64,000 nt of DNA from Bugula neritina (taxonomy: Eukaryota > Animalia > Bryozoa). A program made the translations under genes and the position numbers. The notes beneath the pieces were generated by a model that saw nothing but the letters and a program-made list of their open reading frames with translations, made no database searches and was not told the DNA's origin. Where the stretch lies: the NCBI GenBank assembly GCA_964035545.1, contig OZ037771.1, positions 11,164,480 through 11,228,479 of the forward strand, written 5' to 3'. Positions 1,502 through 64,000 of the stretch are shown in pieces. The stretch's first letter is position 1; every line of letters starts with the position of its first letter.

Positions 1502-8410
<6,909 letters not shown>

Positions 8411-10353: not shown

Positions 10354-10611
10354 CTCATTTAATGCTCAGCAATGACATTAAGTGATTGAGCACACTCACC
10401 ATGGTCACAAACTCAAGCTGCTAGCATTTAGCATAGCTCGTGACTCCTAGGTGACCCTAGAGTCACTTGAGCACTCTGGCTTGGGTTTACACACCTCTTA
10501 AATATGCTTTAGTAAAACTATAAGTGTCTACTATTGCGAAGGTGTGGGCCATGGTACTCTGTTCTGTGCTGATGAGGGGACAAATCCCGAAACAGCTGCT
10601 GTCCACAGATT

Positions 10612-10980
<369 letters not shown>

Positions 10981-12144
10981 CTACTTCTTCATGCACACTC
11001 TTCCAAACATTATTTTTTAAAATGAATATTACAGAGTTGTCCACTCAATCCTGGGAAAGCTGTTGCTAATTAACCATTTACCAGTGTGTAAATGTGAACC
11101 TCTATGAGTTACTCATATCTTTTATAAACTCAATAGAGAAATTCCTATGTATGGTTGTTGTAAAGAGTGAGTTATTTTAGCAAAGGTCAGAGTTTATCAT
11201 TATTTAAAATTTGAGACAGAGTTATATTATTCCGCTAGACATAAATTATTCAATGACTGGAGGTGTGCTATATAGCAAAGTTAAAGTGATGACACTTTAT
11301 TAGACTGATTTATTTGCAATCTTAGGCAGACAGAATCAAATATCAATATTAAATAGGATAAATATATTACAATGAGCATAATTGAGAAATTGCTTTCAAC
11401 AATAATATTCTTTGACTTATGTTATACACTGATCAATATCTACTGCTTATGTTCATGAAAATGAATATCTTTCTGCTACTTCCTTTTGTAACTACTTCAG
11501 GAGAATTATAAATGTTCTTTAGTGCACATTGTGTTTTAATTATTATCATTTGTCGTCTTATTTAAAATTATGCAATAATATTGCTGATAATACTTTGGCT
11601 ACACGCTATAACATAATTATATGATTATAAAAACTGACTAGATATGCATGTATAACAATTTCGATATAAGCTGTGAACATTGTTATTACTCACTTATTTT
11701 AGATGTCAATATGGCTAGGGATAACAAAAAACTCTATTGCAATTATCCATTTTATTATATTTTGTATAAAAATATATGCATATAGTTATGACATCACTTA
11801 ATACGACATAATTTTCCTAATTTACTCAGCCATGTCTGCATGTACTGAGGGTAAAGGTCAGTGTGTATAAGCATATGCAATAGTTTCAGTATTTATATGT
11901 TTCATTGCCTAAAATGAAAAAACATTTTTTCATAAAATATATTAATAAATTTCTATAAATAAAGTTACTGGCATTTATCAATTTTTTTAAGTTGAATTTT
12001 TACCAGAAGTAGCAAGATATCTGACAACTAAAAATCCATTAACACTTATAAGATGTAAAAACTACATTCAATTCAAATATCATAATACAACTAATCTATA
12101 GCTACTAACTTCAGGATAGAGAATAGATACTTAGGTGTTATATA

Positions 12145-18170
<6,026 letters not shown>

Positions 18171-21100
18171 ACTCAATATGACGTCAAGTTGGATCTTCTG
18201 TAGCTGAGATAATTGCTCTATAGAGGCTAAACTATGAATGCTATTGCCGAGAGGGTGCCTCTGTTATATAGTGGTAGCTTCAGGAACAAGGAAACGTTAC
18301 AAGAGTATTACAAAACAATTACAATAATATAACATGATTCATCCTCAAGAAGAAATATTATAGAACTTGCAAAAGAATATTTTTGATTATTAAGGTTTAA
18401 TTTATCATAATTACTCTATCCTTAACTTACCTATATGGCTATTCCAAAAATAACTTTTAGTAATTTATTATTGTTTATACTTAGTGCCTAAGTACTAGCT
18501 TCTTATGCCTAATTTTCTATCATATGACAAATTAATTGTCTTTAAACACAACATCTGTAAAAAAATTCAAAAAGTGGTTTTATTTTGTAAAAAGAACCTA
18601 TTTATAAGCTCTTCCCTTTGTCAGAAGCATATGTGTACATGTCAAATATTTGGCGTAAATATTTTTATAGCCACTAGAGTATATACCATGTTAGCTGCTG
18701 TAACATGTTGTATCAACATAGTGTAGTGTTCAACAGTTTCAATTATACAGTACGTCAGGTTTTAGTTATGTTTCTTTTCCGTATATTTACTAATTTGTAT
18801 ATTATATTTCTTTAAGTTGTTTTAATTTAAATGAAGACAGCTTTAATTTTTGTAAGTTTCGATTATTCAGAATGGTTCTATATGCACCAAATTATTCTAC
18901 ATTGGTGGACATCCGGTTGAAGTAAGAGATAGACAATTGCTATATTTAGTGCAACACAGATAGCTGTTCAATTTATCAGATTAGACAGGAAATTCATGGA
19001 CACATATATTATTAGTGCACCCAGCATATGCTGATAAAACTTTAAACAAGATATAAATAACTTCGAACTATAGCTATTGTTTGTAACTTGCTTTTACAGA
19101 TATATGTGCCATGGTATATGATGCATTAGGTGAATACAGCAGGAAAATAAGTTAGATTAGCATGACTGATTTATAATTGCTATTGACTAGCTATTGTTTT
19201 TTTAATTTATGGGGTGCATATACAAACTCACTCTGGTTAGAGAAAGCAAACTTTACTGCTTATTTATTGACAGCATGCAGATATGCCCTGGATAAGTAAC
19301 GTATAATAGCGTTTAAATGCTGTAGATCATCAAATATTCGTAATACACTTTATAGTTTTTTTTATATATATTCTAGGTTTCAACACATCAACATTTTTAT
19401 CTGAATGCCAGCTTTTCTGAATGTTTTCTGATTTTCCTATCTAAAATTACACACATGCTATGCCAGTAGTCAAAATTCAACAACAGCCATATTGCTGCAG
19501 TCGTACTTCGAAATGCCTCAACTATTATGTAAGAAAATCTTGAGGCAAGGAACTTAGTTCTACTCAGATATTTTGACAGCATACTCTCACTGATGGCTAC
19601 ACCAAATTTCTAGTCTGCTAACTTTTTAGAGGAGATATTTTATTTAAATGTGCTGTATATAAGCCAGATATTATGATTTTGTTGCATTAAACATAAACTA
19701 TAACTACCCAAATATACTGTATGGATCATTTAAATATAGTAAAAGCATTAAAAACTTTTGTTTCGGTTAAAATATTCAAGTTTTAATTTTAAAGTTTCTA
19801 TATATAAGTGACATTCTGGCATATGACATTGTGACATTATGACATGCCGTAAAGTCACATTTTTGTCACAATGTCACATGTGACAACATACCATGTGATA
19901 TGCAAGAATTTAAAAGAAGTAAATCTATAAAAAGTATAAGAATTATAGGGTTGCCAAAAAGCAAAGTGGAGTTACAGAGAGACTTAAAGAGACATTTACG
20001 CTTAGTTATAGAGTACGTTGATTTAGTTAGCACGTACCACATTTATAGTCAATGGAATCATGTTCTATCAGAGAAAAACAAAACACGCCAACTTGGCTTC
20101 ATTGTGTTGTTTAGAGCTTGTTTACACAATCCTGGTACTATCTCATAAACAAGTAGAAAGAATCTGCAAATAAAGCTATTATATATTCATAATATTGTAC
20201 ATAACAATGATGCTTTTAATAGCGACATTTTCAATACCTATTGTAATGCAAACTACAATTGCATAAAAACTGATCAGATATAGCTGTTGTTTAGCAACAT
20301 TTAACATATATATTATATTATTAGGAACACAGGATTTTATCTAAAATAGCAGCTAATAATATATTGTTAATCACAGAAATAACATCTCATGTCATGCATA
20401 AACATGCAACAAGTGCGCACATGTGTATCTTATGAAAGTTCTAAATTGTATATTCAATTGAAATTTTTAAAATAAGCATTGCTTTTGGTATACATGTTGT
20501 TCTAAACATTCTCATCATGATGCTGCAGAAGTACTGATGACAGCACACCTGCAGACTATAGTCACATATCCTTAGCATCCTTTAACTGAATTTTCAACAA
20601 ATTATTTCTCTGCAGGAAGAATTTTTACAAAGTTATAAATCTTTGATCATCCAAGCAGCTGAACTAAGCTGAACTTTCTGTTATGTTAATATAATTAATA
20701 TTCTCTAATCTATTTGAAAGTTTTATTTTTATATTTTTGGCCGTGTTATGAAAAGTTGAAATTTTACTCCTAGCAAAATATACTATATGTTGAACATCAT
20801 TAATTTAGCCAGCAATCATGTTATTGCAATTTACCAATTGAAGGGTTGATATTTTAAGGGAGGGGTATATTAACTTCACTCTTTTCAAATTTTTGTTGTT
20901 CAACTCATTTAACCTTCAGCCAACTTTTTGATTCATTACTTCCCTGAGCCCTAAAAATAAATGCATCAGTGAATCTTCCATGCATTAATATGCTTTAAAA
21001 TAAGGTCATACTCTCTTATATTTACAGCTCTAAATATGCATGTATAGTACATATTGTACATATTCCTGTATTGTAGTAAAAAAAGCAATAAATTAAATTG

Positions 21101-31682: not shown

Positions 31683-32296
31683 TCAAGCATGTGATTTGAT
31701 AGCTAGTAGCTCCAGGGCAATTCTGAGATTGGTTTTAGGCAAGCTCTTAGTCATGACATTGGCAGGGCTCTCAGCTCCTCTGATGTGTTGGTATACTATG
31801 GTGTTTTGCTCTCTGACAATGTGGAATCTAGTGTCAATGTGTTTGCTCCTCTGATGTAAGTATGGTTGTCCCTTAGTGAGGGCAATGGCTCCAAGGTTGT
31901 TGGTGAAAACTGTGTTAGGGTTATTCTGTTTCATCTTGAATGTTTTGCACAAGGTCTGAAAGGTCCTGTTTTGAGTATAGACAAGGGTCTCCGGCACCAG
32001 GTGTGAAGCCTTGTTCCTTGACGAAAGTGGTAAGTGTTTGGTGCCAATTGCGTCTGCTGTGTTTGAGGCCATATATATATAGATCTGTTGAGACGCCAAG
32101 AAAGCTTCCCTTGGTTGCTGGTTTCTTCGTACTCTTCAGGCTGTTGTAGATAGGTTTCCTTATTGATTGGCGTGTTTAGGTACGCCTCTTTAACATCTAG
32201 TTGATGTATCTTCTTGTTTTCATTTTGCTGCTTTCTGTAACAGCAATCTGATTGATGTGAATCTGGTGGTTGGACTGTACATTTCGTCATAGTCAA
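31683..32296 (-). pseudogene. Copia pol remnant (RT and RNase H fragments, frameshifted, YVDD region absent)
   Basis: ORFs 31931-32296 and 31683-32099 carry Copia RT and RNase H motifs in different frames. Confidence 0.88.
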
Positions 32297-32584
32297 CTCA
32301 TTGTATTTGTCAGTATCCTTTTGCTACATATCTAGTTTTATGTGGTTTTTCACCAGGGGTTTTTCCTTGTTTGAATTATGTAGGGTGTTTATTTTCTTGT
32401 CCTTAGCTCTTTTCTAGGCTTCTTTATCTCTTGAATTTACAGTTTCTTGGTGGACTGTGATATGTTTGCCATCAGTGGGCAAGCATAGTTAGTGTCTTTT
32501 ATGTCATAGTTCTGTAGGTAGGTAGAACACTTTCGTTTCCGTTATGATTTACGTGGTCCAGATTGATCAGTGGCCTTTGCCAGA

Positions 32585-32878
32585 TCTGGTGCAGGTCTTT
32601 GTGGCATGACGTTCATTGCGTCATTTCCGCATATTTGTGCAGGTTCTTGTGGCATGGTATTCTGAGTACCATTTCTGCTGTTTTGTGCGGGTCCTTGTGG
32701 CATGACATTCATTGCGTCATTTCCGCATTTGTGTGCAGGTTCTTGTGGTATGGTATTCTGAGTACCATTTCTGCTGTTTAGTGCGGGTCCTTGTGGTATG
32801 ACGTTCATTGCGTCATTTCCGCATGTTTGTGCAGGTTCTTGTGGCATGGTATTCTGGGTACCATTTCTGCTGTTTTGT
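32585..32878. repeat. 96-bp tandem repeat (two 48-bp subunits), about 3 copies, inside the Copia element
   Basis: Minus-strand translation repeats MPQEPAQTCGNDAMNVIPQGPALNSRNGTQNT. Confidence 0.9.
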
Positions 32879-33690
32879 GTGCCGGTGTGTGTTCCGGTGT
32901 GTGTTACGGTGCGTGTGCCGGTGTGTGTTTCAGTGTGTGTGTTTCAGTGTGTGCGTGTCAGTGTGTGTTCTGGCGTGTGCGCCGGTGTGTGTTCCGGTGC
33001 GTGTGCCGGTGTGTGTGCCGGTGTGTGTTTCAGTGTGTGCGTGTCAGTGTGTGTTCTGGCGTGTGCGCCGGTGTGTGTTCCGGTGCGTGTGCCAGTTTGT
33101 GTGCCGGTGTGTGTTCCGGTCTGTGTGCCGGTGTGTGTTCCGGTCTGTGTGCCGGTGTGTGTTCCGGTCTGTGTGCCGGTGTGTGTTCCGGTCTGTGTGC
33201 CGGTGTGTGTTCCGGTGTGTGTTCCGGTCTGTGTGCCGGTGTGTGTTCCGGTCTGTGTGCCGGTGTGTGTTCCGGTCTGTGTGCCGGTGTGTGTTCCGGT
33301 GTGTTCCGGTCTTTGTGCCGGTGTGTGTTCCGGTCTTTGTGCCAGTGTGTGTTCCGGTCTTTGTGCCGGTGTGTGTTCCGGTCTGTGTGCCGGTGTGTGT
33401 TCCGGTCTTTGTGCCGGTGTGTGTTCCGGTCTTTGTGCCGGTGTGTGTTCCGGTCTTTGTGCCGGTGTGTGTTCCGGTCTGTGTGCCGGTGTGTGTTCCG
33501 GTCTGTGTGCCGGTGTGTGTTCCGGTCTGTGTGCCGGTGTGTGTTCCGGTCTGTGTGTCAGTGTGTGTTCCGGTCTTTGTGCCGGTGTGTGTTCCGGTCT
33601 TTGTGCCGGTGTGTGTTCCGGTCTTTGTGCCGGTGTGTTCCGGTCTGTGTGTGCCGGTCTGTGTGTGTACCGGTATGTGTGTCGGTGTGT
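32879..33690. repeat. 24-bp minisatellite CTGTGTGCCGGTGTGTGTTCCGGT (dimer of 12-mers) inside the Copia element
   Basis: Directly visible tandem array. Confidence 0.95.
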
Positions 33691-34425
33691 AGTACTATAT
33701 AGTGAGTAGTACTATATAGTGAGTAGTACAATATAGTGAGTACTGAGTAGTGTTGTATTGTGAGTAGTACTACATAGTGAGTGATACTGTGCAGTGAGTA
33801 ATACTATGTAAAGTGAGTAGTGCTGCCCAGTGAGTAGTACTGTGTACAGTGACCGAGTGATATTGTACAGTGAGTAATAGTAATACTGTGTGCAGTGTGA
33901 GTGAGTGGTAGTGTACAGTGAGCGATACTGCATAGTCACTATGATAGTGAGTGATACTGTACAGTGAGTAATAGTAATACTGTGTACAGTGTGAGTGAGT
34001 GGTAGTGTACAGTGAGCGATACTGCATAGTCACTATGATAGTGAGTGATACTGTACAGTGAGTAATAGTAATACTGTGTACAGTGTGAGTGATATTGTAC
34101 AGTGAGTAGTAGTAATATTTATATTGTGTACCGTGTGAGTGACACTGTAGAGTGAGTGAGTACTGAGTAGTAATAGTACTGTGTACAGTGTGAGTGACAC
34201 TGTAGAGTGAGTGAGTACTGAGTAGTAATAGTACTGTGTACAGTGTGAGTGACACTGTAGAGTGAGTGAGTACTGAGTAGTAATAGTACTGTGTACAGTG
34301 TGAGTGACACTGTACAGTGAGTAGTAGTAGTATTGTGTACAGTGTGAGTGACACTGTACAGTGAGTAGTAGTAGTATTGTGTACAGTGTGAGTGACACTG
34401 TACAGTGTGAGTGATTAGTATTAGT
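33691..34425. repeat. AGT/ACT-rich compound minisatellite (55-bp, 44-bp and longer units) inside the Copia element
   Basis: GACACTGTA recurs at 34141, 34196, 34251 and 34306 (55-bp period), then at 34350 and 34394 (44-bp period). Confidence 0.92.
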
Positions 34426-34490
34426 AGCTACCTCGTGGAGCAAGTCGCAGGGTAGAAGTTGATGGCTACAAAGCATCTGGGCCCATAACC

Positions 34491-34763
34491 TGTTGAATGT
34501 GTTGCCATCGTGTATAGTATTTATTATGAAATACGATATTGATTGCTGATTTAACTTATCGAGCAAACTGACTGACTGATTTAATTATTTGGTAATAAAA
34601 TATTTATTTGAATCAAAAACATGACGATGGTTTTTGTATAACAGAACGGAAGAGAAGGGGTAAACAAGTATACAGCGATTCTAGTAAAGCAATTAGTTAG
34701 TACATTGTCACGTGATTGTTATGAATGTGATTAGCGATAGGATCGCATGATTGTTTCTCAACA
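34491..34763 (-). repeat. 5' LTR of the Copia element
   Basis: 273-bp direct repeat of 31403-31675, next to the PBS. Confidence 0.96.
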
Positions 34764-35455: not shown

Positions 35456-41116
<5,661 letters not shown>

Positions 41117-41592: not shown

Positions 41593-41676
41593 AGATTATA
41601 TTGACATAATTATTTATGGACATTTTACAAGTTTTTGCCTGTCTTGCTTGGCCAGTTTATCTTACAAGAGCAACTG

Positions 41677-42075
<399 letters not shown>

Positions 42076-43140
42076 TGCAGGTGCATATATACAATGCATC
42101 ATCTTAGAGACATTATATGTTAGAACATTGCAATAACATGAAAATGTAAATCTAAAAATTCTATTTTAGAACATCAATAGTTTCAACAGTAAATTTTTCT
42201 ATAACAGCATATGCTTTTGCTTCATATTAAATTTCAATCTGTTAAGTTTTTATAGACTATTTCCAATTATTACTATGCAATGATTCGGTAATTAGCAACA
42301 TTTTTTTTAAATTATAAATTTCATAATTTAAAAAGTTGAAAATTGAGCTCACCATCATTTTCTTGGAGTTAGAGACATTACAGAGCAGTTGATGCTACAT
42401 ATGGCATAGGAGAAGTTAGTGTGTAGAGATTCTAATCTCACCATAACAATAGTTATATAATGTGGTATCGTTGATTCGTGATGTAAAACTATGGTGATAA
42501 AAATCTCCAACATTGTATTATTATACCATATAATCAATTTTAAGATTGTCGGGCCTGGTAACTTTTAACTATGTAAAACATAATGAATTACTATTATATT
42601 ATTTTATGTATATTCAAAGTCAAGTAGAAAGTTATTAAAATCAGATCATCTGATACTAGACAACACTTGTACCAAATTATACAAATGTACAATGCATATT
42701 TCAAATGTGTATTACGTAGACTCAAAGTTACTATAAAGTTTTCAAATAATGAATTAGTATTTTAAAAAGTAATTAGCTCTGTGAAATAAAAATAAAATTT
42801 TCAACTGGAGCTATAAATTGTTACTGAAAAAGTGCTGTGTTTTGTAATTAAATCATGCTTTTGAGCATAAACGCAAATTTTTGAATTAAATAGTTTTTCC
42901 GGTTTGTAATCCTCAGTAGGCCTTCTAATGTATTAGTTTGCACAACAACTGCAGAGGGTTGAAAATGTAAGTTTTGATTCTCTGGTGGGGGGCAAAAGTC
43001 TTTAAAATACCACATGTTTCAACTTTTTTCAAATTAAGATAATGCGTGCAATAATTCTATTAGTATAAATAAAAATCTCACCAAATTTTATAGCCACTAC
43101 CCCTGATATGAAGGGTTTTGTTAAATCAATTTAAGAACCT

Positions 43141-47332: not shown

Positions 47333-48288
47333 TCATTTCTTGGTATTATAATGTTTTTGCTGATTCAGGGCTTCTACAAGAGGAGAGTTGGAAAACTTCA
47401 TTGGGTCATCAAATATATGCACATACTGGTCAAAGTCCTTTAAGTGTTGTAGGAAATATTCTGGTAGAGATTGAGATTTGGGGCCAGATCTTTTCCTTCT
47501 CTTGAAGTCTTCACAATACTCCATTATCTCCTTGTCATTACAGCCATACACGCAGCACTCACACACTATACCTTGGGAGTCGCTTGGCGTGAAGCCACCA
47601 TGTTGACGCTTCTGCCGGAACAAGAACTCATTGGCCTTGGCGTGACTTTTGAAGACACTATTTGCTTCTGGTGTTTCTTGCTTGATGACTTGTTTAGCTG
47701 GAGTGTTGTTGAGCGAGGTTGAAACTGCAAAATAATGTTATAAAATTATTGTCTATTATAGTTGCAAATACGGCAATAAACTAAAACAGCAATCCTCAAC
47801 TTGAAAAATGATTACAAGGTTGTTTTAATTATAAACCTCTGACTCTTTACAGCAGATCTTTTTACATTCATAATTAACCATTTGATTTTAAAAAAATTGT
47901 AAATAAACTCAATAAACTACAGGATATATAAATTGTATTTCAGAGTTTATGTTGACAATATGTACACTAAATTTTCAAAGCAATTAAATGTAGTAAAATG
48001 ACTTATAAAACTGCTATACACATTTAAGTATGAAAAAACACATGTCTATTGTAGCAAGTATGAACTTGGTTTGTTATCCCCACCTGCTCGCTTTCTTCTG
48101 TTGGGTTGGTACCCGTAGCACTTGCTGAGAACGTAGTCCGTGAGTTCCCCGCCGCAGCGAGCCATTCGCCCGTGATAGCCACTTTTGATTTTGGCTTCTG
48201 AGCAGGTGTGCGTCAGTTTTGCTGTGGTGAAATTCAACAGCGTCAGCAGCATTGGTAGCATGCAGACAAACATTTTGACTGCAACCAT
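47333..48288 (-). CDS. Insulin-like peptide precursor A (8-Cys, molluscan-insulin type), 198 aa
   Basis: Exons 48084-48288 and 47333-47724 (phase-1 intron). Signal peptide; B chain HTC-x15-C-x11-C; RRKR; C peptide; RQKR; A chain QHGG...GIVCECCVYGCNDKEIMEYC; KRRKR; 51-aa tail. Confidence 0.94.
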
Positions 48289-48783
48289 CTGCAATTATAC
48301 AAACAGCTTTTTGTATTTCAAAGAGAACAACAAACAGCTATTAAAATATTTCTATATTTTAAAGTAAAAAACTAGCAATAAAAAGGTTTGTCACCCAATT
48401 GTAGGTATAGAAAGAAACATCCCATAGCTGTGATAATCAAAAAAATACTTGGTTACAAAGTTTTTAAAACGTAACTTTCCATCAATACTGTAGTCAACTA
48501 AACTAATTAATTACATTAATTAAATTAAATTATTTTGTATAATAGACATAAATTGTATGTTTTTGATAAAAACTAAATCATAATACTACTATCTCTAGCA
48601 TTGAAGTTTTAAGATTGATGATCAAAAATAGTAAGACTGCTGCATTTAAAAATACTTTGAAATTAATCAAAAGCAAATATTTTGCTGTACCATAATAAAG
48701 TAAATACCTTGATGTAAAAATATTTGATATGTGTTTCTTTAGTGTAAAATTTATGTATAATCAAAACAAGGTGTAAAGTTTTG

Positions 48784-48856
48784 CTTATATACTCCTAGCA
48801 ACCTATTATTCGATGTAAGTAGATAGAACGAAGTTTTGTTAGCCAATGAAATTGCA
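48784..48856 (-). promoter_or_regulatory. Putative core promoter of insulin-like gene A (TATA plus CCAAT)
   Basis: Minus-strand GTATATAAG at 48792-48784 and plus-strand AGCCAATGAAATTGCA at 48841-48856, near-identical to the motifs upstream of gene C. A 5'-UTR donor AAG|gtattt lies at 48708/48707. Confidence 0.6.
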
Positions 48857-50176
48857 GTCGTTAGTTTGAAGCTCTCAATAGACACAGCTTTTAGTTACTA
48901 CGTCACAAATATTATGTTTCTGGGTTTAGCAGTAAGCAGTTCAACGATGTTGTTCGCACATTTCCTATTTATTTCTATCATATGAGTATATGTAATTTTG
49001 TTATTACTTTCAAAAATTATTTAAAGTCTATTGGTATATCATTCATAAAGACTATTTTTTAAATGTCAAAATATTTAGAATACTTTAGAATCAGAAAAAT
49101 AATTTGTTATCTCTTTCATTAATTAATGTAATAACATTTTACTTTCATTGATTTGTAGATCTCTAAATAATAATGTTATATTATTTGTGTGCTGATGCTA
49201 TAATATTTAGTCTGATAAGTTACACTTTTTTAAATTGTATTAACATTTATTTGTTAATTTTACTATAAATTATGTTCCCCTTCAAAAAAAATTCTGCAGT
49301 ATAAAAGACAAATGCAATCAAAACACTTGCAGTGGTTATTTTATTTCAAGTTATTTCACTTTCAAATTAATTACTTTTACAATATTTCCTTCTAAATAAG
49401 TTTACAATAAAGTAATTTCCACGTTTTTGTTATTGCATGCGTTTATGGAATTATCAGCGTTAAAACTTTCGCAGAGTTATTGAAATGGTACAAAATAATA
49501 CATTTTAAAATCTTATTAGTTTTCCGTATTTTTTTGGTTACAAAAATCATTTTTTGAAATAAAAATGAAGTAGCTGTTGTATTATCTGTTGCAAAATTTA
49601 AAAAGTGAAATTTTCAGTTTATTATAGTAAGGTATGCTGCAAATCAGTAAAATAGCTAAATGAGCAAATAAAATAATATTTTACTGTTATTGACAAATTA
49701 CACACATATTATCTATTTAAGCTGTTCATTATCTGTGATTATTTTTCAAATTTTAAAGAATTTGGCATTCACATCTTTTTATGTTAACCAACCCTTTTAT
49801 TAATTGCAAAGGTTTAGTTGTACCAACATTTCTGTAACGCATTTCTCAAATCACTCAGATTCTTGTGTGAACCGAGATTTTCAGATAAATTAGTTGCATT
49901 AAAATTAGCATCAGGACGACTGCCTGTATTCCTGAAATGCTGGCAACAGTACAGCTCAGATTGTTGCTGTGCTGGTAAACAGGGGAGGTAAATAATCATT
50001 ATTTTCCCAAAACCAAGTAGATGACAAATATTTGCATGTCTAATGAGCATCAAGAACCTATATACAGGTAAACGGCAATGACAAGTAGCACTATAGTAAG
50101 ACTCGTGCAAGTTTATAGTCACCATCCTTGTGCGAAACCCCTTCTGGAAGAGGTTTTTTGCAAAATGGGCTGGGGA

Positions 50177-50302
50177 CTTATTCAGATGAAGCACAGGAGC
50201 AATTATGACTGGATGCTTTTCCTAATGCCTATGCAGGGTGTTGGAATCCGCAACTCCGTGTTTACAAAGCAAATGCTTTAACCCTAGACCACTGTTGCTC
50301 CC
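50177..50302 (-). mobile_element. tRNA-derived SINE copy 3
   Basis: Shares GCACAG...TATGACTGGATGCTTTTCCTAA...AACCCTAGACCAC with the other two copies. Confidence 0.65.
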
Positions 50303-50911
50303 ACAAGTAGCACTATAATAAGATATATCAGGTAATTGTTATTATGATTACATAATGAGTGCTTAGATTAAAGTTTCTGTAAACAAAATGAGAGCAGCTG
50401 CTGACAAATGAAAGTATTAATCATTTTTGCTAAGTTGCCACAAAGCTTGCCCCAACCCTGTGGCTATCTGTTTATATCCAATTGTCGAAATATTTTCTTG
50501 TACTCTCAAAATATACCAATTTTTTCAAACACGCAGCAGTGATATATGTTCGCAATTCATCTAAATCAGCTTATCTGTGTGCTACATATTCAACTTTTGT
50601 ATAGATTTCCTGGTGTATTTTCTACTTCAACACTGTACTGCAAGTAACCAACATTCTTATATTAATGTAACTGACCTCCAAATGCAAAGCAGCAGCAAAG
50701 TTGTAATTTCTAAAGAGGCAGAAACAAAACCATAAAAACTTATTCTTTTGTACAGCTGTGCAATTTTTTAAGTTTGTATTGTAGTTGAATTTTTGCAAAA
50801 ACAAAATTATGTTGTTGCAAATTTTGATAACTGATTACATCAAAACTTGATTTGTACAAGTTTGTAACCATAGAGCAGCCTATATGTTATAAGAAGTTAT
50901 GTTCTCTTCTG

Positions 50912-50913
<2 letters not shown>

Positions 50914-50983
<70 letters not shown>
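50914..50983. repeat. (TA)n microsatellite
   Basis: Directly visible. Confidence 0.97.
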
Positions 50984-50987
<4 letters not shown>

Positions 50988-53874
50988 AAGTTTAAAAATT
51001 CTTTTGGCTCATGGTTTCAAACTGTGCTAAAGAGTAGATATAATACAACACATACGTAGATAATAAGACCATAATAATCTATCTATTTGTTTACAAACAT
51101 AGGTGTGTTTACATTTTATTTTCAAGTTTACATTTAATTGGTAGATCTGCAGTTTATACAGAGAATTTTTCATGACAAACTGGGAATAATGTATAGTAAT
51201 TGTAAAATACCAAACATCGACATTCCTGTTCCTACGGCGTAATAACTGAGTATTTGCATTTATAGAAATGTTTAAATTACTGTTTTTAAACCTTTTTATA
51301 TCATTAATCTGTATAGGTACTCCCACTAGATTATTTATTGTATAAAAACCTGGTTATTATGTTCAAGCTGATATCTATCAACTAAATAGTAAACAATTTT
51401 TTTTACCCTCTCGACACCCTGTGTCATATTGTGGGCCATAACATCAAATGTCAGGCATTTTTACAAGTGTCTGCATTTCCTGTACAATGTTATGGTGCGC
51501 CAGGATCAAGCGCTGTTTGATTTTAAAAAGTTGCGACGGGCTCCTATTGGACAGAAAGACATTGCGTCAATTCATTGGATATAAATGTCCAATGAGGTGT
51601 CATAGATCGTACCTATAAATAAAAAACTTTGAGAGCTTCAGCACGGATACATCAAAAGTGGCTGACATTTTACGTGCTGGAAGCTGCTGTTATTATTGTT
51701 ACTTAGCTCCTAGTTGCTGTTTACTCATCTGGTTGCTAAACAGAATGATTTAAGAGTACCACCCTTCAAAACTTTTAAATGTGACCTCATTTCTGGAACT
51801 ATTTATAGCTCTGTTTGCACTTGCGCAAAACTCTGTTGATTTTTGTTTACCATGCATATACTGAGCTGCAGTTTTATATAGAAATAATCAAGTATAGGCA
51901 TTAAATAATAGTGAATATTTAGAAAATGCAAGGAATTTAATATTGTATGTGTAGTACGCTTGAAACTAAGCAAATATCAAGATTTCAATTCATGATGTCT
52001 TGGTGAAACAAAATACAAAAGCAATCTAAATTCGGAGTACTTTATTACATTCATCTGCGATGTTTTACTCTGTTGCTAAAAGTTGAAGTTAATATATTTC
52101 GTAAAAAATTAAATATGAAAGCCAGCATTATATATGTTGCGTGAGATAACATATATTGCAAATGCTAACACTTGTAATAAACTTTTCAACTTCATAACAG
52201 TTATTTGGGTGCTTTGTGAATAGATCTGATGATTTCTTGGCCCATTACCATTGTTTGGTTAAACATTTGTTAACTAATAAGTGAATTGTTGGGGGAGTTT
52301 CTATAAGTAATAAATTTGACTATAACAAAGTAAACTAATTAAGAAGTAATGCAATGCATTAAGTATGTTTTTATTTAGAATCTAACGTTTTTTAGAAAAT
52401 ATTTAAGCCACTTGCTGGTTGAAAAGTTCTATTGCGCTTCACTAATTGTTGTAAGCTTGATAAATGATTATAAATCAGTCAATTTTCTTTTAAATGTATG
52501 TTTTTGTTGGTAGGTTTACATCATTTGTAGAATGTAGTGTTAAACCAGAATTAAAAATTTGCTGTTCAATTTCTTCGCAACGTATGCAGCTCATCCATTG
52601 CAGTAGGTGACAATAATTTAATAACATAGAATAGATATCTGCAATAAGTGCTATTATAAATTCACTAGTCAGTTCATATAATTATACGCTACAGCAAACT
52701 ACTCATTTCATTTTAATATATGTTTACCTATTTATATAATTATACATGTCTTTGCTTGTCAGATGCAGTGGTATTTAGTGTAGTTATACATATATACGTC
52801 TTCCTTATACACAGAAATCTTGCAGACATGCAGTATAAATATATGTTGATATACTGCGAACATTTGATGGCTGATTCCATGTACAAACAAGGAAACTAGA
52901 GTAAATCTGTGCAGTGCTTTCACTAGATTTGTAATAGTATATTGATTTAATAACATTACATATAGTCATATACTATGATGCAAACTTAATGTTCCTGTCG
53001 CACCTCTAGACAAGTGCTTGGTAAAAGCATGCACTTTATTTTATGTCTATAAAAAGACTTTACAATCAAGAAGTGTTAGATAATAGTTATTCTTTATAAA
53101 CACAAATTTAGAACTGAACTGAACATATTATTGAATTCTTGTCCAAAACATTCATAGTGCAGTTTATTATCACAAGCTATATTTTTTCCAAAACTTGGTA
53201 GTTAGTTGTGTTCTCCTAAGTTTGTTTGTTTGTTTGTTTTTATTTTGTCATAGTAGGGTAAAAATTGATTGAGAAAAAAATAAACAAAATGACAGGGCCT
53301 ATGGCGCAATAGCACTGTAGCTAGTCGAGGCACCGAGCCATGAATGGTTGACAGTTATATAAGATTTTTGTTTAGGTTTTTGGAAGTTTTAGCAACTTAA
53401 AAAGTATTATTTTTTTATCTGGAAATTTGCCATTAGATGGTCTCTCAGGGCAAGTTTGAAACCAGCCTCCCTCCCCACAGCACGAATAGAACTAGGCAAT
53501 TTATTACATAGCGTCGAACATTGGAATTCCACTCTTCGTTGACCTGCAGCAGTTGATGATGGAGGAGTTTGTAGGCTGAACTCTGAAAATCTTGTGGGAT
53601 TGTTATGTGTGAGATGTGTTAGTTGAGAATAGTAAAGTGAATCTTATTATCAGATAATTATAATAATGTCCTTGAATTAAGAGGCTAGATGTGAATTATA
53701 GTAGCCATGCATGCAAAGCACAAGTTCCAGTAGCTAAGGGTTAGTTACTGGTTAGGGGTATAGCACCTGTGTGCTGGATCGCAGACTCGAACCACAAAGT
53801 CATTATTGAGACACACAGTCTATATACAGAGACGGTAAGAATTGTTATATTAGCAGTTTCTAGTCGGGGGTAAC

Positions 53875-53999
53875 TGAGTGCAGTAGTTTGAGGTTCTCAA
53901 GTTTGTGGTTGGGGGTTTCAATAACCGCACAATGAACTTCGATCAATAATCATTGAGTAACCGCAGCTCAAACTCGAAAACCTCAATTTGCTGCACTCA
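53875..53999. repeat. Imperfect inverted repeat, MITE-like
   Basis: TGAGTGCAGTAGTTTGAGGTTCTCAAGTTTG pairs with CAAACTCGAAAACCTCAATTTGCTGCACTCA. Confidence 0.65.
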
Positions 54000-54558
54000 A
54001 CTCGGAGCTGCTTATAAAACAATGTGAATTTTGTCTTCACTTGAGAGTTGTCTTGCCAAGTATATCTCAATGCAAGGAAATGCAATTTCTGTGAGCAGAC
54101 AACTTCCACTTACTTACTATTGTATGAACTTTCACAATATTAGGCCTATATAATTAAAATAATTGTGAACTCAAATAGTAATATTTGAAGAACAGTTGGT
54201 CAGCATATTTTACAGAACTTAATAGAGTTACAGGAGACATTTGCTGAGAATTACGTATTGACTGTAATATAAGTCACGAACTGGTGCTTGAAATTATTCC
54301 TGCTTTGTAGTATATCCATGAGTAAATAACTCCTCCTCAGTATAACAATAGTTCAGCAATTTTATACTTCTTTAAATTTTAATGTGTTTTGATTTAGTAA
54401 TGATAAGTTTTTGTATGGAAATCAGTTTCTAAAATAAAATATGTATAAAAAGATATTAGCCTACAGGCAATGTAATAGTATTGTTTATTTGCCTCAGAAT
54501 TTTCTTACTCATAACTTGACATGTTACTTCAGGTGCTTGATTTAAACTCATTCATGCT

Positions 54559-55465
54559 TCAAGCAAGAAGCTTTGTATGGCCGTTGATAGTTTTCTGCTT
54601 ATCTAAAGCTTGTACAATGGGCGTATTGACAAACTCTACCACACTGTCAAATTTTTCTGGGTAATTACTGATTTCATCCAGATATGTTTTAAAATAGTTT
54701 GGTATTGAATCTAACATTGAAGTTGATCTTTTCCTCCTCTTGAAATCTTCACAATACTCCATGATCTCGTTTTCATCACAGCCATGTATGCAACACTCAC
54801 ACACTATACCCTGGGAACTGCTGGGAATGAAACCAGCATAGTTCATGTAATCTTCGTACATCTCTCTGTTCCGCTTTCTGGGTGACAGGAACTTGTCAGC
54901 ATCAACCTTCTTGGTGAAGATCTTGCCGTTAGCAACATCATTCTGCCCCCTGGTGAGTAGTTTTTTCAAGGAGGTTTCTTCAGCCGTATCATTTGTGGTG
55001 TTAGCATCAGCAACTGCAGCATATAATGTTGAAAATATTACATCAGACTTTGTTAATATTCATAGAGACAACATAACTTCTGTAAAATTTGCTTTTATTC
55101 TAACTTAAAATCTATGAAACAATGATTCAAAATAGTTTAAAGAAGTTTTGGAAATTAAGCAAAGACATATTTTAATGGTTCCTTAAATTTTAGAAAATAT
55201 AATATTTGTAATAAATATACATTGGTGTATACACTTTTTAGTCATACTTAGTTTTTATTTTCTTACATTCTCGTTTGCTTGGGATGTAGCCGTAGCATCT
55301 GTTAAGGACATGATTCGTCAGACTTCCACTGCAAAGAGATTGTGAAGTACGATATCTACTCATGATCATGCTATAGGAACAGTTGTGGTCGTACCCTGCC
55401 TGGGTAGAGGTCAACAGCCCCAACAGCATCGCCCAGCTAAAGCAGTCTGCTAAGAGTTGAACCAT
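54559..55465 (-). CDS. Insulin-like peptide precursor B (8-Cys, molluscan-insulin type), 217 aa
   Basis: Exons 55267-55465 and 54559-55013 (phase-1 intron). Signal peptide; B chain HNC-x15-C-x11-C; KR; C peptide; RKR; A chain NREMYEDY...GIVCECCIHGCDENEIMEYC; KRRKR; 55-aa tail. Confidence 0.94.
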
Positions 55466-55845
55466 TTTCTTTAGCTGCATATAATCAAACAAAACATCAT
55501 TGCAGATTTAAGTACGTATTGTTTTTCCATAAAATTGCATTAGACCGCAAGTATAGAGTTTTTTATAAATAAATTATATCCCAAAAAAATTTAATGCTCC
55601 ATAAGTTTAATAAACATTTTTATAAGTTATTGCAACGTTTATAAAATATTTTTAAATTTATTTTCGTAAGAAATTTATAAAATTATTGTAAAAATGTATT
55701 TATATGTAGCTAGCCATAGCCCTAAGAGTTACTAAAAGTACTTCAGATAGTAACTATTTACACCCCTGAACTTAGGGGACTGCTGTGTGGTACTAAGAAT
55801 GTACTCTGTACATACTCGAGTGTATTGAACTCTGCAAGAAAATAG

Positions 55846-55899
55846 CTTTTATATTCACTGCCCAGTTGCAACTAAATGTATCTGACATTCAACCAATCA
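55846..55899 (-). promoter_or_regulatory. Putative core promoter of insulin-like gene B (TATA plus CCAAT)
   Basis: Minus-strand TATAAAAG at 55853-55846 and plus-strand AACCAATCA at 55891-55899; same arrangement as in the paralogues. Confidence 0.5.
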
Positions 55900-58703
55900 T
55901 ATTATAGAACCAGATTTCAAAGTTTCACTGCAACCAACGTAAAGTTTGCCTATAAACGTTTAAATAAAATAACCAGTACTTTAATTATATCATTTAATAT
56001 CTCTTTTATTCAAGTACTTAACAGCTGCATTAAAATTGTTTTGCAACAAAATAGAATATGTTAACTTTCCTAAAAGTGTAAAAAAGGGAATAAGATGCAT
56101 ATATCCGTCAAGGCAGCAGCGAAATGCTCCATAGCAAATTATAAAAATTTTCTAGGCACTTGATTTTGAAAAGTTTTAAGTTTGACCTTATTCATCTTTA
56201 TTATCCATGCATCTTTGTTTGTCTCTTGTACTAGCAACGTTGTACCATCCAAGGTCAACTTTCTGCTTTAATACTCACTGTCATCTAGTTTGTGTTCTTC
56301 TAATCCTTACCCCTAACACTTTGCTAATGTTTTCGTTGGCTTTTTGCTATTTACTTTAAGGCCATGCCACTCTATCCATTTCTTCTCACAACGTCCTTAA
56401 ATGACACCATGCTGGTCCTTGCTGTGAGATCTACAGCTGCAGATTAGCAATAGTCCCCCAGGTTTGTCTATATATAGGCATGAATATGGGTCAACATTAA
56501 CCCCTCACAATGCATCAATTGCTAACCACGTGATTAGTTATGTTTCATTAATATGAAATAGAACAGTCTTGTCACCTTTGAAATATAGGCACAGGTTAAT
56601 TAGCGGCTATAGTGAAATACAATAAGAACCATGTAACATATATCTATACATGGCAAACATTGCTTATCTCACATAAATCCATGTAGCGTACTTGTAGAAT
56701 ATCTGGTATATAAATAGCAGAACACCGACAATTCTTTATATGTAGATTATTACAATCTTTAAATCTTTATACAACGAACAATAGCTTAGCTGCATTGTCA
56801 TCAATAGCATTACAATAAGCATATCACTAAAATCATAATTTGTATTTGATTTTTTGTTCTGACAAGAGATTTTGTCAGAAAAAGAAGCACTTTTTTAATA
56901 ATGAAAATTATCTTGACTAAACTGAGATGAAAAAGAAAGGAAGGTTATAAACATATAATAGAAATGTACACTTTAAGAACTATACAAAGGCTGCAGATAT
57001 AGCACAGTGTGTGTAACAAGTGAACAAACAAGCCTGAAAACTGCTGCTTCATTTGGTTGTATATATAGAATATTTCAAAAAACAAAAATATACACAGTAA
57101 TTCGAAAATAGATTTGTAATTGCGACTTATATTATACATCTTGTGTAGATTTAATAATATTTTATCTTGTTCTTTAAATTCTTTGTCATCACTTTATTTA
57201 CACGGTATAGTTATATAATTACAAATGTGATTATGTAATCAAAGCTACTATGTTATAATAGTTCTAAATATAAACATAAAATGTGTTGCTTAAGCCTGGG
57301 TTCGTTATGTTTTGTGGTTTAATAATGCAGCTGAAGGTATACAATTTAATAAATGTGTGCTATAATTCTCACCTATTCTCACCTATCTCAGATTTGTCAT
57401 GTTCTGGTAGCGGTAGTGTGTGCTATAACTGATAAGTCTATAATAAGTGTGCTATAATAAGTTATTTAATATGTGTGTTATAGTGCTTTGATATTCTATA
57501 TTAATATGATTATATTATAAGAACATTATAATGACATTATAATGCATACCCATATATTAGAAATAATTGTAATAATTTATAAAATATTATAACAATAAAA
57601 CTATATTGTAGTAATTTTGGTATATTCAAATAATACTGGCGTATTATGTTGAAATTAATGGTATAATATAACATTATAATAATATTGGTATAGAATAATA
57701 TTTTAAAAAGTTGATTTAGTATAATATTGTTGGTACATTAGTACTGTATTAGTATAACTGCTGAAAATGCAGTAATGTAAAAAATGATGCCATATGTTTG
57801 GCTAGTAGCCTACTCATAATATATAATCTCTGTTTGTGCATGATAGCAATATGGGTATATTATAAATATATTTTCGTATAAGTTATTATTTTCCATAATA
57901 AGAAGACAACTACTTTGTATATAATAAATATAAAAATAATTTATTGATTACAAGTGATGACAACTCTAGAATCAGGTTTATAATTTGATGTGGAGTAAAA
58001 GCAAAAATTGATACAGTATAAATTTATAAGATATAATGTAGCATTTTGTAGACCAGTACAAAATAGTATAATATATCAAATTGTATTTTATGTTAATAAT
58101 GCTATGTTAGATTTTATTGCAATATAACTTATGTTGTCTTCTATTATTTATATTATTGTAAATTGTATTATATTACATTATTACATCATGTTATATTACA
58201 TGATAATATAATATTGCATTGCTTTATAATATATTACACTATATTACACTTCGCTATGCTTCATGGCATTATATGTCATATTATAATAGGTCAAAGGTCA
58301 ATAGTATAAAAATTTAGTGAACCTATCTTCATGATGGATTTAAACTAAAAACTGCATTATTAAAGATGTTTTTATTATAAACCACATTGGCTCATTGACT
58401 TATATACTGTCCATTGATTGTTTATTCACTCTTTATTTGTCCATTAGGTTGAAAAGCACAAATATAATATAAAGTATAAATATTATAGAATTTGGTGTTC
58501 TACTTTGGTAACTTTTAGTGATCAAGGTTTTTCAAAAACATAAATACCTTATTCAGCAGTATTGAGTCAAAATTTTTATCTAAATTTTATCCTAAGAAAA
58601 AAGTACAAAGTTCTTCTCATATGAGTCATGTAACAAATTTTGTAAAACAATAGCATTTTCTAGCAAATCATCTCTGTTCCAAAGTCTAGCTTCTTTTAAC
58701 TTG

Positions 58704-59556
58704 TTAGTTGTTGTGTTTAATGTTGATAGCCTTTTGTTGATTTAATGCTTGTACAATTGATGTCTTAGAAAACTCTACCGGATCTTCAAATATGTAGTCT
58801 TCCAAGCCGTCTTCAAAGAAATCACGAAAATATTCTGGCACTCGTGAGTTAGAAACTGATCTCTTCCTTCTCTTGTACTCACAATACTCACCAATTTCTG
58901 TGACAGTGCAGCCAAAGATGCAACATTCGCAAACAATACCATTCTGATAGGAATCTATTCCATCATAATTCCCATAATCTCCATAGTAATAGCTGTAAAT
59001 GTCAAACATGTTCCGTTTTGATAAAAAGTTGTTTGCATCCAGTCGACTTTTGAAGATCTTACTCTCAGCTTGGGAGTTGTGCTCTCTCGAAAGTAGTTTG
59101 TGTAAAAAGTTGATAGTTTGAGGAACAGCTACAAAAGAAATATTGATATAATATCTAATATGTTGACTAATAAACTTATAGCAAATTCAAATGCTTTTGG
59201 ATCAATAGAAGCAATAATGTATGACCCTTCCTAATACATTTATTCAAAATTAAAAGGTATTTAACAGGTGTGAGAATATACCATAAATTTGAAAAAAAAT
59301 ATTAGCTCTATCAAAATATTTTTTTTTGGTAACTGAGTATCCTATTTTCCTCACCATTCCGTCGTTTTCTTTTTTTTGCGTAGCATACTCTATAGACGTA
59401 AGCCATCAAATTGCCACTGCACTGAGATAGTGGCCCTCGAAAGCCACCTTGTATCATTGAAAGGGTACAGTTGTGTTCAAATCCTGCATTTGTCTCTGGC
59501 ATAATCTCACATATGATCATGCAGGTAGCACATGCCACCAACAACATAGACACCAT
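58704..59556 (-). CDS. Insulin-like peptide precursor C (8-Cys, molluscan-insulin type), 208 aa
   Basis: Exons 59355-59556 and 58704-59128 (phase-1 intron). Signal peptide; B chain HNC-x15-C-x11-C; KKRKRR; C peptide; KR; Tyr-rich A chain ...GIVCECCIFGCTVTEIGEYC; KRRKR; 51-aa tail. Confidence 0.94.
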
Positions 59557-60008: not shown

Positions 60009-60976
60009 CATTTCAAGTTAATGATCTTATGGAAACATTATTACTGGTATAATATTGTTTCTTTTGCACTTCTTTACTGCCTAAAATGGAAAGATTATCA
60101 ACATGTTGACACAAAAAAATTTTCTGCTTGATAATTGTTATTTTGCATCAGCTCATAGTCTGCAGAATATTTGTTGTACATATTTGAGACACATAGTGCT
60201 TTATCTATATATATAAAGCTAACATTAGATTGGATACGATACATTTCATCAACAACAACAACAACAATATTATTTCACAAATTATTTATTTAAATACATT
60301 TTATAAAACTAAAATATTGATAACTCTGGGCATGTGCAGTAAGTCTGATAACTAGCAGTAAAAGTAAGTCGCCCTATTGCAATATTATAATTATGATCTA
60401 TGGTAGTCGGGTTTATACCTTCACTGAAAAAAAGTAAAGATTTTCAGTCAGTTTCACTGATCCGAGTAACCCTTTTACCAAAACTCTTTGAAATCATATT
60501 GATGTAGAAGCTTACTTTCTGATTGGGAACTATAACTCACTTAATCAGTATTTGATATACCCTTCGAAAATGTGATGAGCAAAGTTGACAGCATACAAGT
60601 GATAATTGGGAAATAGTAGCTGATATTATAAACATGAAGTTTTTGCTTGAATTGCAGAAATTTTATTTCATGCTTTCTAAGTAAGTCACCTAGCTGCCAA
60701 AGTAATAATTATAAATAGCGATATCTACATAGAATTATCATTCCCACTGAATATTATAATATTCTGAAATCAGCCAATTAAGTTATCACAGGACAGTAAG
60801 TTTAACAAGTGGCTTTTACAGTGCAACGCAGCTGGGTAAAATGTTCAACTCGACCAGATTGCTTTTCTGCCTGAAAATCATGAAGGTATAAACGTTACCT
60901 TAATCAGGTAAAATTGTAAAGCAGTGATCGATTAGAAAAATAGAAGTTACTTGTTGTGGAAAATTTTATAAACACT

Positions 60977-61617
<641 letters not shown>

Positions 61618-64000
61618 ACACACCTTGAATATCAGTATATAATATCTACATAAAATGACTATCAATTATACAATTGATGTTCACCTTCTATGAAAGGATT
61701 TGCACATGAAAGATAGATCTCATATGGCCACCAAACAGAGCTTCCTATAAGATTAGGGTTACTGCACCAGCTGACAGAAATGGGTGTTATGTAAGTATAT
61801 AGTTATGTTTACTTATAACAGTCTACCAAAAGCTTTGTCACTCATACAACTAATTTTAGATCATGCAGTTAAAATTATTTTGAAGTCTCTAGAGAGAAAA
61901 CAAATCAGACAGCCATAATATTTGTACTGCAAGTGTGTAAATAAATCATTATCAAAACATAAAGTTATTGCAATGATGGATTTAACTTTGAATTTATTAG
62001 TCTTGAGATGCAGCATAATAGTAAAAATCAGTTTTTAAAGTGTTTTGATGCAGACTTACAGATGACAAAATATATCTTTAAGCTCACAGTATCTGGTTTC
62101 AGCCAAATAAAATTTCAAATAAAAATTTAATAGTAGACATGTGATATGTTATATATGTTCGACAAGATGCAGTATTTGTTAACTTACACTGTTTAGCACA
62201 ATGAAAACAAGTTATTGTAACAAATAAAGTGTTTATACCATTTCAGCACAACTGTTGCTGTTTTGAAATAATTGTGTATGCCATATACTGAAATTTGAAT
62301 TTTAATTAAAAATCACGCAATACATGTTAAAAATATTATTCGGAGCTAATTGTGTTTACAATTTGTCTGGCACACTGCATTGCAAACCATGGCTGTGTTC
62401 ATGTTTTTCAAATTGACATATTTGTTTATGTGATTATATAATGCTTCATTGTCAAAAACAAACAAATTATACATGTAGATCAGTGCAATGGCATTTTTAA
62501 ACATAGTTTAACAAACTAATCAATAAATGATATATTATTGCTAGCTGAAACTTATAAATACTTAAACTGTTCATTAAATGAACCCAAGTTGATTCAATAG
62601 GAAGATGCGTAATACTAGCAGACTTTACCAATATTCAAGCAGGGTCTTCTAGACAAGACGTAGACATTGCGTCATATTGTGTCTAGTCACATGTTCAATC
62701 TAAACCCCGTCCATTTCTTTAAATCTATTTTAACACACTACGTGTATAAAAATTCAAGGTACATGACGCAATAAACTAATATAATGGTAATTTTATTCAA
62801 AGCTATTTTTAGTAGTAAGTAGTTTTCTGTATACATTGATAGCTCTTCTACCATGTAGCCTAAAGCAACAGTTTATAATATAAATCCAGGCCTCTATCTG
62901 TTTCTCTACCCTTGATTAATAAATTAAAAGGTTATGCAGTTTAATTTTTAAAATAAAAAACAGCACAATAACAATAACAATTACAATCACAAACGGGATG
63001 CTTCTATAATTTGTAACTAATTGGCAACTTGAGAGCTGGCTGCCCCCACAGTATGTACTTCGTACTATATTTAGTAGAAATAAAGCTCTCGTCATTGTTC
63101 TTAACCACTTGAGATGTTAGTCTAGTCTCTGACAGTTGAATATTTAGCCACGTTTGAATTATTTATAACCCCTCGTTATCTCAGCCAGTAAATCCGTTTT
63201 AATACATCAAGTTTGCGTGGTATTTGAGAGCTGCTATAAGGTTGCGTAACAGTAACGTGATTTGTACAATACAGAGATTACAGGATGTAGAGGTGAATAA
63301 GTGCAGTGAATGTATTCATATATACAGTCAGCAGCAAAGGGAAAGTTTCCTTTCCCCCTCACTGTATATTATTACTTTAACGTTTAAAAAATGATAGACA
63401 ACTTAAATGAATTAACAAATAGTAGGGTTTTGGTTTTATGGAACAACTTCAAGGACGTTTGTATGATGGGACTTGGACATTGTATCGGTTTGTGTTTGTG
63501 TCTGGTTGCAAGATATGCTTTAACTACTAGCCAACTTGGCAACAGGTTTTCGAGTTTATTAACTGTCAAATCGTACCCTATAAAATGGGAAACATTAGAA
63601 ATTGTATAAATAAGTAGTCACAATATAAATCAAAATTCAGAGGAACACTATGAATATTACAGAACCAAAAAATTGACATGAACTATTATAATTCTAATAA
63701 ACTTACAATATTGATGCGTGGATAAAAATCTTAGCCATCACAATGCCGAAACCGATAGTTTATTCATACAAAGAGTGTAAATATGGTGGTTTGATCATGA
63801 TATACTGACTCATGCAGTACAGTGAATGAACTAGCTCTGCCAGCTAATAGTAGCTTTGGTGAAAGCTTTTGAAGCTTGAAAGCTTTAATGATTGGCTGCC
63901 TGCCAATACTTCTGGGTGGCATACCAATACAGACATCTTTTATCAACCTGCATGTCAATGTCAATTTATTCATTTTTGACATAAAAATATTTTGTTGTTA

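Follow-up and report, generated by a model that had tools for sequence, protein, structure and literature searches.

Residues F-16, A-10 and L-6, counted back from the cleavage site, are the hallmarks of the propeptides of proteins that carry gamma-carboxyglutamate (Gla). Here, we analyse three tandem, eight-cysteine insulin-like precursor genes (A, B and C) on the minus strand of a 64-kb stretch of the genome of the bryozoan Bugula neritina (contig OZ037771.1, assembly GCA_964035545.1; hereafter, the window). Their C-peptides end in a motif of this kind, which is likely a docking site for GGCX, the carboxylase that depends on vitamin K, a reading to which we give a probability of about 0.6. 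Structures of GGCX reveal three propeptide subsites, namely a hydrophobic stretch from -17 to -15 with an invariant Phe-16, a small residue at -10, and a hydrophobic -7 followed by L, V or I at -6 (PMC13187478). PMC12647623 agrees on these subsites and describes a linker of 7-8 residues as "just enough" to put the first Glu in the active site. Propeptide affinities span over 100-fold among true substrates, and mutations at -1 and -4 prevent cleavage and leave carboxylation unaffected (PMC7395276). In flies, both GGCX and VKOR are functional, and their knockouts have no apparent defect (PMC5578492); this, and the fact that invertebrate GGCX and VKOR work without a clotting cascade, raises the question of their natural substrates.

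Three insulin-like precursors and the end of their C-peptides

A six-frame scan of the window returned the insulin A chains of these three genes only, plus one microsatellite artefact. Each gene consists of two exons encoding a signal peptide, B chain, C-peptide, A chain, KRRKR and a tail, with a phase-1 GT-AG intron inside the C-peptide. The precursors follow the insulin superfamily layout (signal-B-C-A, dibasic sites and an A chain with CC-x3-C-x8-C), and exon 2 alone matched PF00049 at E-values of 0.0003, 0.0003 and 0.023, none reaching the curated cut-off. An extra Cys in both chains and the phase-1 C-peptide intron are those of MIP-class insulins, and four disulfide bridges have been predicted for the insulin-like peptides (ILPs) of B. 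neritina (PMC4990251). Over exon 2, gene A shares 88% identity with B. neritina ILP-C (P0001), whose transcript was cloned by rapid amplification of cDNA ends (PMC4990251), and the match of the spliced model to this sequence confirmed the gene A splice; no RNA data set is listed as a source for gene A. The splices of genes B and C are inferred from GT-AG borders and an open frame, close relatives of these genes being P0002 (gene B) and the B. neritina sequence P0003 (gene C). The features are as follows, in window coordinates:

48084..48288, minus strand: gene A exon 1, signal peptide, B chain (three Cys in the mature part) and RRKR site; spliced model in agreement with ILP-C P0001
47725-48083, minus strand: gene A phase-1 intron, splice confirmed by P0001
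47333..47724, minus strand: gene A exon 2, C-peptide, A chain, KRRKR, 51-aa tail and stop; 88% identity to P0001
47606..47659 (core 47621-47656), minus strand: gene A C-peptide end, candidate docking site V-17 F-16 K-15 A-10 F-7 L-6, then QKR cut site
47504..47605, minus strand: gene A A chain, 34 aa, 4 Glu, 31 residues from the Phe to the first Glu
47336..47488, minus strand: gene A tail (D/E-type peptide), 2 Glu
55267..55465, minus strand: gene B exon 1, signal peptide, B chain and KR
55014-55266, minus strand: gene B phase-1 intron, predicted from GT-AG and open frame
54559..55013, minus strand: gene B exon 2, C-peptide, A chain, KRRKR and 55-aa tail; close relative P0002
54871..54924 (core 54886-54921), minus strand: gene B candidate docking site I-17 F-16 T-15 A-10 F-7 L-6, then RKR cut site
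54742..54870, minus strand: gene B A chain, 43 aa, 7 Glu, at 18, 21, 40, 48, 50, 53 and 56 residues from the Phe
54562..54726, minus strand: gene B tail, 3 Glu
59355..59556, minus strand: gene C exon 1, signal peptide, B chain and basic site
59129-59354, minus strand: gene C phase-1 intron, predicted splice
58704..59128, minus strand: gene C exon 2, C-peptide, A chain, KRRKR and 51-aa tail; B. neritina relative P0003
59013..59060 (core 59022-59057), minus strand: gene C C-peptide end with the candidate docking site I F K x4 A x2 F L, whose Phe stands at -14 relative to KR
58875..59012, minus strand: gene C A chain, 46 aa, 4 Glu, at 42 residues and beyond from the Phe
58707..58859, minus strand: gene C tail, 5 Glu

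The three C-peptide ends had been quoted in a first-pass annotation of the window, and they translate from the minus strand as it claimed. Genes A and B carry F-16, A-10, L-6, K-2 and R-1, and gene C keeps the same internal spacing shifted two residues toward KR; this shorter distance is no obstacle to docking, since changes at -1 and -4 spare carboxylation (PMC7395276). Phe-16, Ala-10, F-7 and L-6 of the GGCX recognition propeptide are present in all three genes, and position -17 is hydrophobic (V, I and I). Some Glu lie within reach downstream, from 31 residues on in gene A, at 18, 21, 40 and beyond in gene B, and from 42 on in gene C; the A chains contain 4, 7 and 4 of them, fewer at the top end than the 4-8 previously given. 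It had also been said that the rest of the C-peptide is much more divergent than the motif, which is true between A and B (5/22 identical residues against 4/12 in the motif) and between A and C (4/22 against 7/12), and barely so between B and C (10/23 against 6/12).

We defined the strict motif as F-x5-A-x2-(hydrophobic)-L. In 200,000 shuffles of the exon-2 C-peptide of each gene, such a motif ended 1-4 residues ahead of KR with frequencies of 0.0007, 0.0010 and 0.0012 for genes A, B and C, values that are not independent because the genes are paralogues.

Two further features of these precursors were seen. The A chains of genes B and C have long N-terminal extensions rich in Tyr, Asp and Glu (54841-54870 and 58956-59012, minus strand), in which tyrosine sulfation may occur. 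In addition, the tails (47336-47488, 54562-54726 and 58707-58859, minus strand) have in common an acidic-aromatic stretch as well as a helix with the ending L-x-Q-Q-K-x-x-N, a pattern also present in Watersipora and many other relatives, and could represent a second bioactive peptide.

Conservation and position of the motif in the insulin family

A first profile search yielded 17 strict and 23 loose motifs among 27 evaluable relatives (out of 35), with named sequences from Watersipora, Tritonia, Mercenaria, Tegillarca and Ruditapes, and these counts were set aside as biased because the profile contained the motif. A second profile was made of A chains only (17 rows, with seeds from the first search) and detected 268 proteins at an E-value of 0.001. 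The best 150 of the 268 were used, 120 of them new, and 11 of the new ones were dropped for having fewer than 22 residues upstream, leaving 109 relatives. The strict motif was found in 50 of these 109 and the loose one in 87, compared to 1.2% and 7.3% in shuffled sequences. When the F-to-A gap was set at 2, 3, 4, 6, 7 or 8 instead of 5, strict counts fell to 0, 1, 1, 4, 1 and 1, the loose pattern not being gap-specific (84, 87 and 67 at gaps 4, 5 and 6). Anchoring the relatives without using position -10 gave Ala there in 66/66 cases. Finally, the full pattern hydrophobic-F-hydrophobic-x4-A-x2-hydrophobic-L appeared in 41/109 relatives, against 109 of 218,000 shuffles and none of 5,374 tail positions.

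An alignment of 110 rows was assembled from the three window genes and 107 of the 120 relatives, the 13 with short upstream parts being left out. It showed Ala in 109/110 rows, Phe in 68, Y or F at -7 in 81 and Leu in 91, with a consensus I/V/P-F-L-x-K-x-x-A-L-S-Y-L that fills all three published GGCX propeptide subsites. The annotation had mentioned a wider spread of the motif as a caveat, and had overlooked that it is family-wide, not special to these three genes, and that its residue at -15 is polar in them.

The motif is also tied to one position of the precursor. The strict form lies ahead of 41 of the 137 dibasic sites that precede an A chain and of none of the 199 other dibasic sites in the same proteins, and the loose form ahead of 75 and 2 of them, respectively. 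Counted from the first KR, the Phe usually falls at -14 to -16 (with -14 or -15 the commonest positions), and it ranges from -13 to beyond -20. GGCX tolerates such variation, as carboxylation is unaffected by mutations at -1 and -4 (PMC7395276) and matrix Gla protein docks through an internal site.

To look at other subfamilies, the 36 named precursors of supplement MOESM14 of PMC11863921 were scored by eye. The strict motif was present in 5/8 Dilp7-type or starfish IGF1-type precursors, namely the Dilp7-type ones of Saccoglossus, Asterias and Acanthaster and two starfish IGF1-type ones, while Crassostrea ILP7 (Ser at -10), Owenia ILP7 (Phe at -6) and Drosophila Dilp7 (Trp at -16) show one conservative change each. 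In the available part of the same source, it was absent from all 28 other named precursors (human relaxins, INSL, insulin and IGF1/2; amphioxus ILP1-3; starfish RGP and IGF2; Owenia RLP; Dilp1-6 and Dilp8; bombyxin), so the motif is unnecessary for the insulin fold in general. As a separate observation, the Drosophila Dilp7 site precedes a Glu-rich A chain, making this precursor a candidate natural substrate of the fly GGCX.

Proposed carboxylase docking and its alternatives

If the motif is a docking site, the prohormone would bind GGCX in the endoplasmic reticulum via its C-peptide, downstream Glu would become carboxylated, those of the tail peptides being as likely targets as those of the A chain, and convertases would then cut away the C-peptide together with the docking site. 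A GGCX and a VKOR of the host are presumed. On the basis of sequence comparisons, these insulin-like prohormones are likely natural substrates of GGCX. This docking role, already proposed in the first-pass annotation, is favoured by the family statistics and the published GGCX subsites, and it is tempered by the divergence of the window copies; the further step to a calcium-binding hormone found no support.

The distance to the conserved A-chain Glu is compatible with docking. From the -16 residue to the Glu of GIVCE there are 22 residues or more in 80/80 sequences, whereas permuting the two segments gave 3.7 expected below 22 (P = 0.001), and in factor IX the distance from F-16 to Glu7/8 is 22/23 in the PDB alignment. 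This floor at the factor IX distance is suggestive only.

Several observations weigh against docking, starting with the Glu themselves. The spacing floor depends on four sequences with a short A-chain extension, from relatives that are not independent; the rank correlation of the spacing is not significant (rho -0.12, P = 0.29), and one loose match lies at distance 18. The A-chain Glu is constant in 109/109 relatives, which is partly imposed because these were found by an A-chain search, and it comes after the Cys, while most Glu of the window are 31 or more residues from the Phe. The family-wide counts likewise treat related members and not independent events. As for the copies in the window, each has a polar residue at -15 (K, T and K), a position that is hydrophobic in 91% of 82 relatives. 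With a position-specific scoring matrix built from the other 107 rows of the alignment, genes A, B and C scored 8.1, 7.9 and 13.0 bits, for a family median of 21.4, a 5th percentile of 12.4 and a background maximum of 7.6 over 26,313 12-mers. Judged by these scores, the window copies belong to the motif family as genuine, though divergent, members and, with their polar -15, would be lower-affinity versions.

Direct likeness to known propeptides is also weak and patchy, being limited to gene A at E-values of 0.11-1.3. The factor IX propeptide chain 9bvk_P was the second of 14 PDB matches of gene A exon 2, in register, at E 0.11. Without the Cys region, gene A had only two matches among 177,635 PDB sequences, pro-factor X (E 0.72, out of register) and factor IX (E 1.3, in register), and its 22-mer matched factor X only. 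No PDB match to Gla-protein propeptides was obtained with genes B and C; the profile of the three genes recovered three unrelated chains, and the 30 chains matched by the 110-sequence profile all belong to the insulin family, so that neither profile retrieved a Gla protein. Membership among the Gla-domain proteins was rejected, as no Gla domain was found downstream of the motif in a Pfam search of the six exon translations at E-values up to 10. In addition, modifications of venom insulins were described in 2016 as "unlike any other characterized insulins" (PMC5062327).

Regarding the enzyme, a GGCX search gave 29 matches, six named arthropod GGCX among them and no named bryozoan, which counts against the proposal as well; a quick GGCX tree also named no bryozoan. 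There were 77 eukaryotic-type GGCX metagenome loci, none tied to the host. Of the runs compared with a GGCX transcript, X1 gave no contigs and X2/X3 one 35-base T-rich match, taken as spurious. Cleft residues were compared in the 26 of 27 eukaryotic rows that had the anchor, using human numbering for Y425, L426, F431, Y415 and V430 that we presumed to be correct. In these 26 non-vertebrate GGCX, Y or F occupies 425, L or I 426, and F, W or Y 431, in 24 sequences each, a point in favour of docking. The equivalents of human V430 and Y415 are mostly A and V in invertebrate GGCX, a further adverse point. Modelled without alignments, complexes between a 37-mer of gene A and a stand-in enzyme, a spider GGCX, scored 0.59, 0.68 and 0.59, partner-swap controls 0.00 and the chain-1-swap control 0.60, which carries no weight either way. 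Apart from these enzymes, P0051, P0052, P0053, P0056 and P0057 are bacterial-type carboxylase-like (HTTM) proteins of 765-785 aa with a long insertion in the soluble domain.

The main alternative, which we consider unlikely although it deserves serious weight, sees in the motif a conserved helix that serves a different purpose: it might pack against the insulin core while the protein folds, or bind a chaperone or a granule-sorting receptor, and its likeness to Gla propeptides would be convergent. Positions -10, -7 and -6 have ordinary helical spacing, and in the AlphaFold model of ILP-C the motif forms a coil followed by a helix (P0001 residues 101-113). Also in favour of this alternative are the conserved K/R at -13 (72/82) and S/T at -8, which the GGCX subsites leave unexplained, the replacement of the "invariant" Phe by L or I in about 30/110 relatives, and the failure of the profiles to retrieve Gla proteins. 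In contrast, the model gives no confident sign of packing of the motif on the insulin core (pTM 0.40, with a per-residue confidence, pLDDT, of about 65 in the motif and under 50 in its flanks), the 28 precursors of other subfamilies do without the strict motif, and an invariant Ala that has, six residues upstream, a hydrophobic triplet of its own matches the GGCX pattern. With the precursor model, Foldseek found no match at E 0.001, insulin/IGF chains being on top. For the motif region, the ESM Atlas returned insulin clusters at low score and no usable match once these were excluded.

A second possibility, rather improbable in our view, is that the family does have a true GGCX docking site here, which in the three bryozoan genes is a weak or dead relic, or that the host lacks the enzyme. 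The polar -15, the scores of genes A and B under the 5th percentile of the family and the presumptive status of the host GGCX would fit this possibility. Nevertheless, F, A, F and L remain invariant in three paralogues that otherwise have 4-7 of the 12 motif residues in common, the Watersipora ILPs retain strict motifs, and low affinity does not disqualify a substrate, given the 100-fold range of true propeptides (PMC7395276).

The motif always lies shortly ahead of a dibasic site, so prohormone convertases might instead recognise it at the C-peptide/A-chain junction, an option that the annotation had left open. The absence of the strict motif from all 199 other dibasic sites of the same precursors (two with the loose form) argues against a general convertase signal, which was rejected, and the variable distance to KR also speaks against convertase recognition, which we hold to be very improbable. 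Chance resemblance, to which the weak PDB E-values and the relatedness of three genes that amount to one observation might point, is hardly credible and was rejected as regards conservation, the family-wide counts being far above those of shuffles.

Beyond the carboxylase docking proposed for the window genes, we tentatively extend the idea, at somewhat less than even odds, to a docking site present in the C-peptides of MIP-class, Dilp7-type and echinoderm IGF1-type precursors since the last common bilaterian ancestor and lost in vertebrate insulins and relaxins. These prohormones might then be an ancient vitamin-K-dependent class and the missing substrates of invertebrate GGCX, with Dilp7 as the candidate in flies and vitamin K tuning insulin signalling.

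Surroundings of the genes and comparison with known systems

Outside the insulin genes, the exons of a gene like monocarboxylate transporters of the major facilitator superfamily were recognised by eye at 37151-40798, minus strand (open reading frames 37151-37894, 38508-38801 and 40547-40798). Fragments at 4053-5785, minus strand (e.g., the start of the open reading frame 4053-4730), resemble an ANKH-type transporter. Decayed pieces of long terminal repeat retrotransposons, also seen by eye, lie at 13997-15718 and 31683-32323, minus strand (a Gypsy-like integrase/RNase H region and Copia-like reverse transcriptase fragments). Microsatellite arrays of AC, AT and longer units yield spurious long open reading frames at 3900-4700, 7670-8400, 10490-11040, 17730-18200, 32760-34580, 41600-42170 and 60900-61670.

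No publication linking an insulin C-peptide motif to GGCX was found in a search that left most subscription literature outside, so novelty is provisional; the available parts of PMC13311285, PMC4208409, PMC4278219, PMC8149454 and PMC6586643 contain nothing on this link. The motif names candidate GGCX substrates in bryozoans, molluscs, echinoderms, hemichordates, annelids and flies. If the proposal is true, part of a C-peptide usually seen as a spacer would have a conserved function, the Gla of cone-snail insulins would have a possible origin, and synthetic invertebrate insulins with plain Glu may differ from the native ligands.

A paper on a Gla-containing neuropeptide reportedly concerns the insulin D-peptide of Aplysia. 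Gla decomposes in matrix-assisted laser desorption/ionization, so this method could conceal it. Cone-snail venom insulins carry Gla, as the annotation had it, at A4 and B10 of Con-Ins G1 and G3 (PMC6372279), although these, unlike the window precursors, are venom peptides built on the vertebrate six-Cys frame. Among the MIP-class eight-Cys insulins, B. neritina ILP-C shares with the window genes the signal-B-C-A-tail layout, the extra Cys pair, the GIVCECC A chain and the phase-1 intron, whereas in the available text of its 2016 description (PMC4990251) "carboxyl" has 0 occurrences and the C-peptide motif is left uninterpreted. Dilp7-type and starfish IGF1-type precursors resemble the window genes in having the site ahead of a Glu-bearing A chain. 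They belong to another subfamily, Dilp7-type genes having a phase-2 intron that separates signal peptide from B chain, and Dilp7-type membership of the window genes was rejected, as one exon encodes both parts in each of them.

In matrix Gla protein (MGP), the docking site remains in the mature protein, whereas that of the insulin precursors would leave with the C-peptide. Both have an internal site with Phe at -7, which in MGP serves Glu away from the N-terminal propeptide (PMC13187478). The Gla propeptides of factor IX, factor X, PRGP1 and osteocalcin have in common with the window motif the hydrophobic -17, F-16, A-10, a hydrophobic -7, L-6, a basic cut site and Glu 21-23 or more residues downstream. 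The window motif differs from them in lying within an insulin C-peptide and not behind the signal peptide, in the lack of a Gla domain, in the polar -15 and in the variable distance to the cut site, and yet its sequence suggests that it works like a Gla propeptide.

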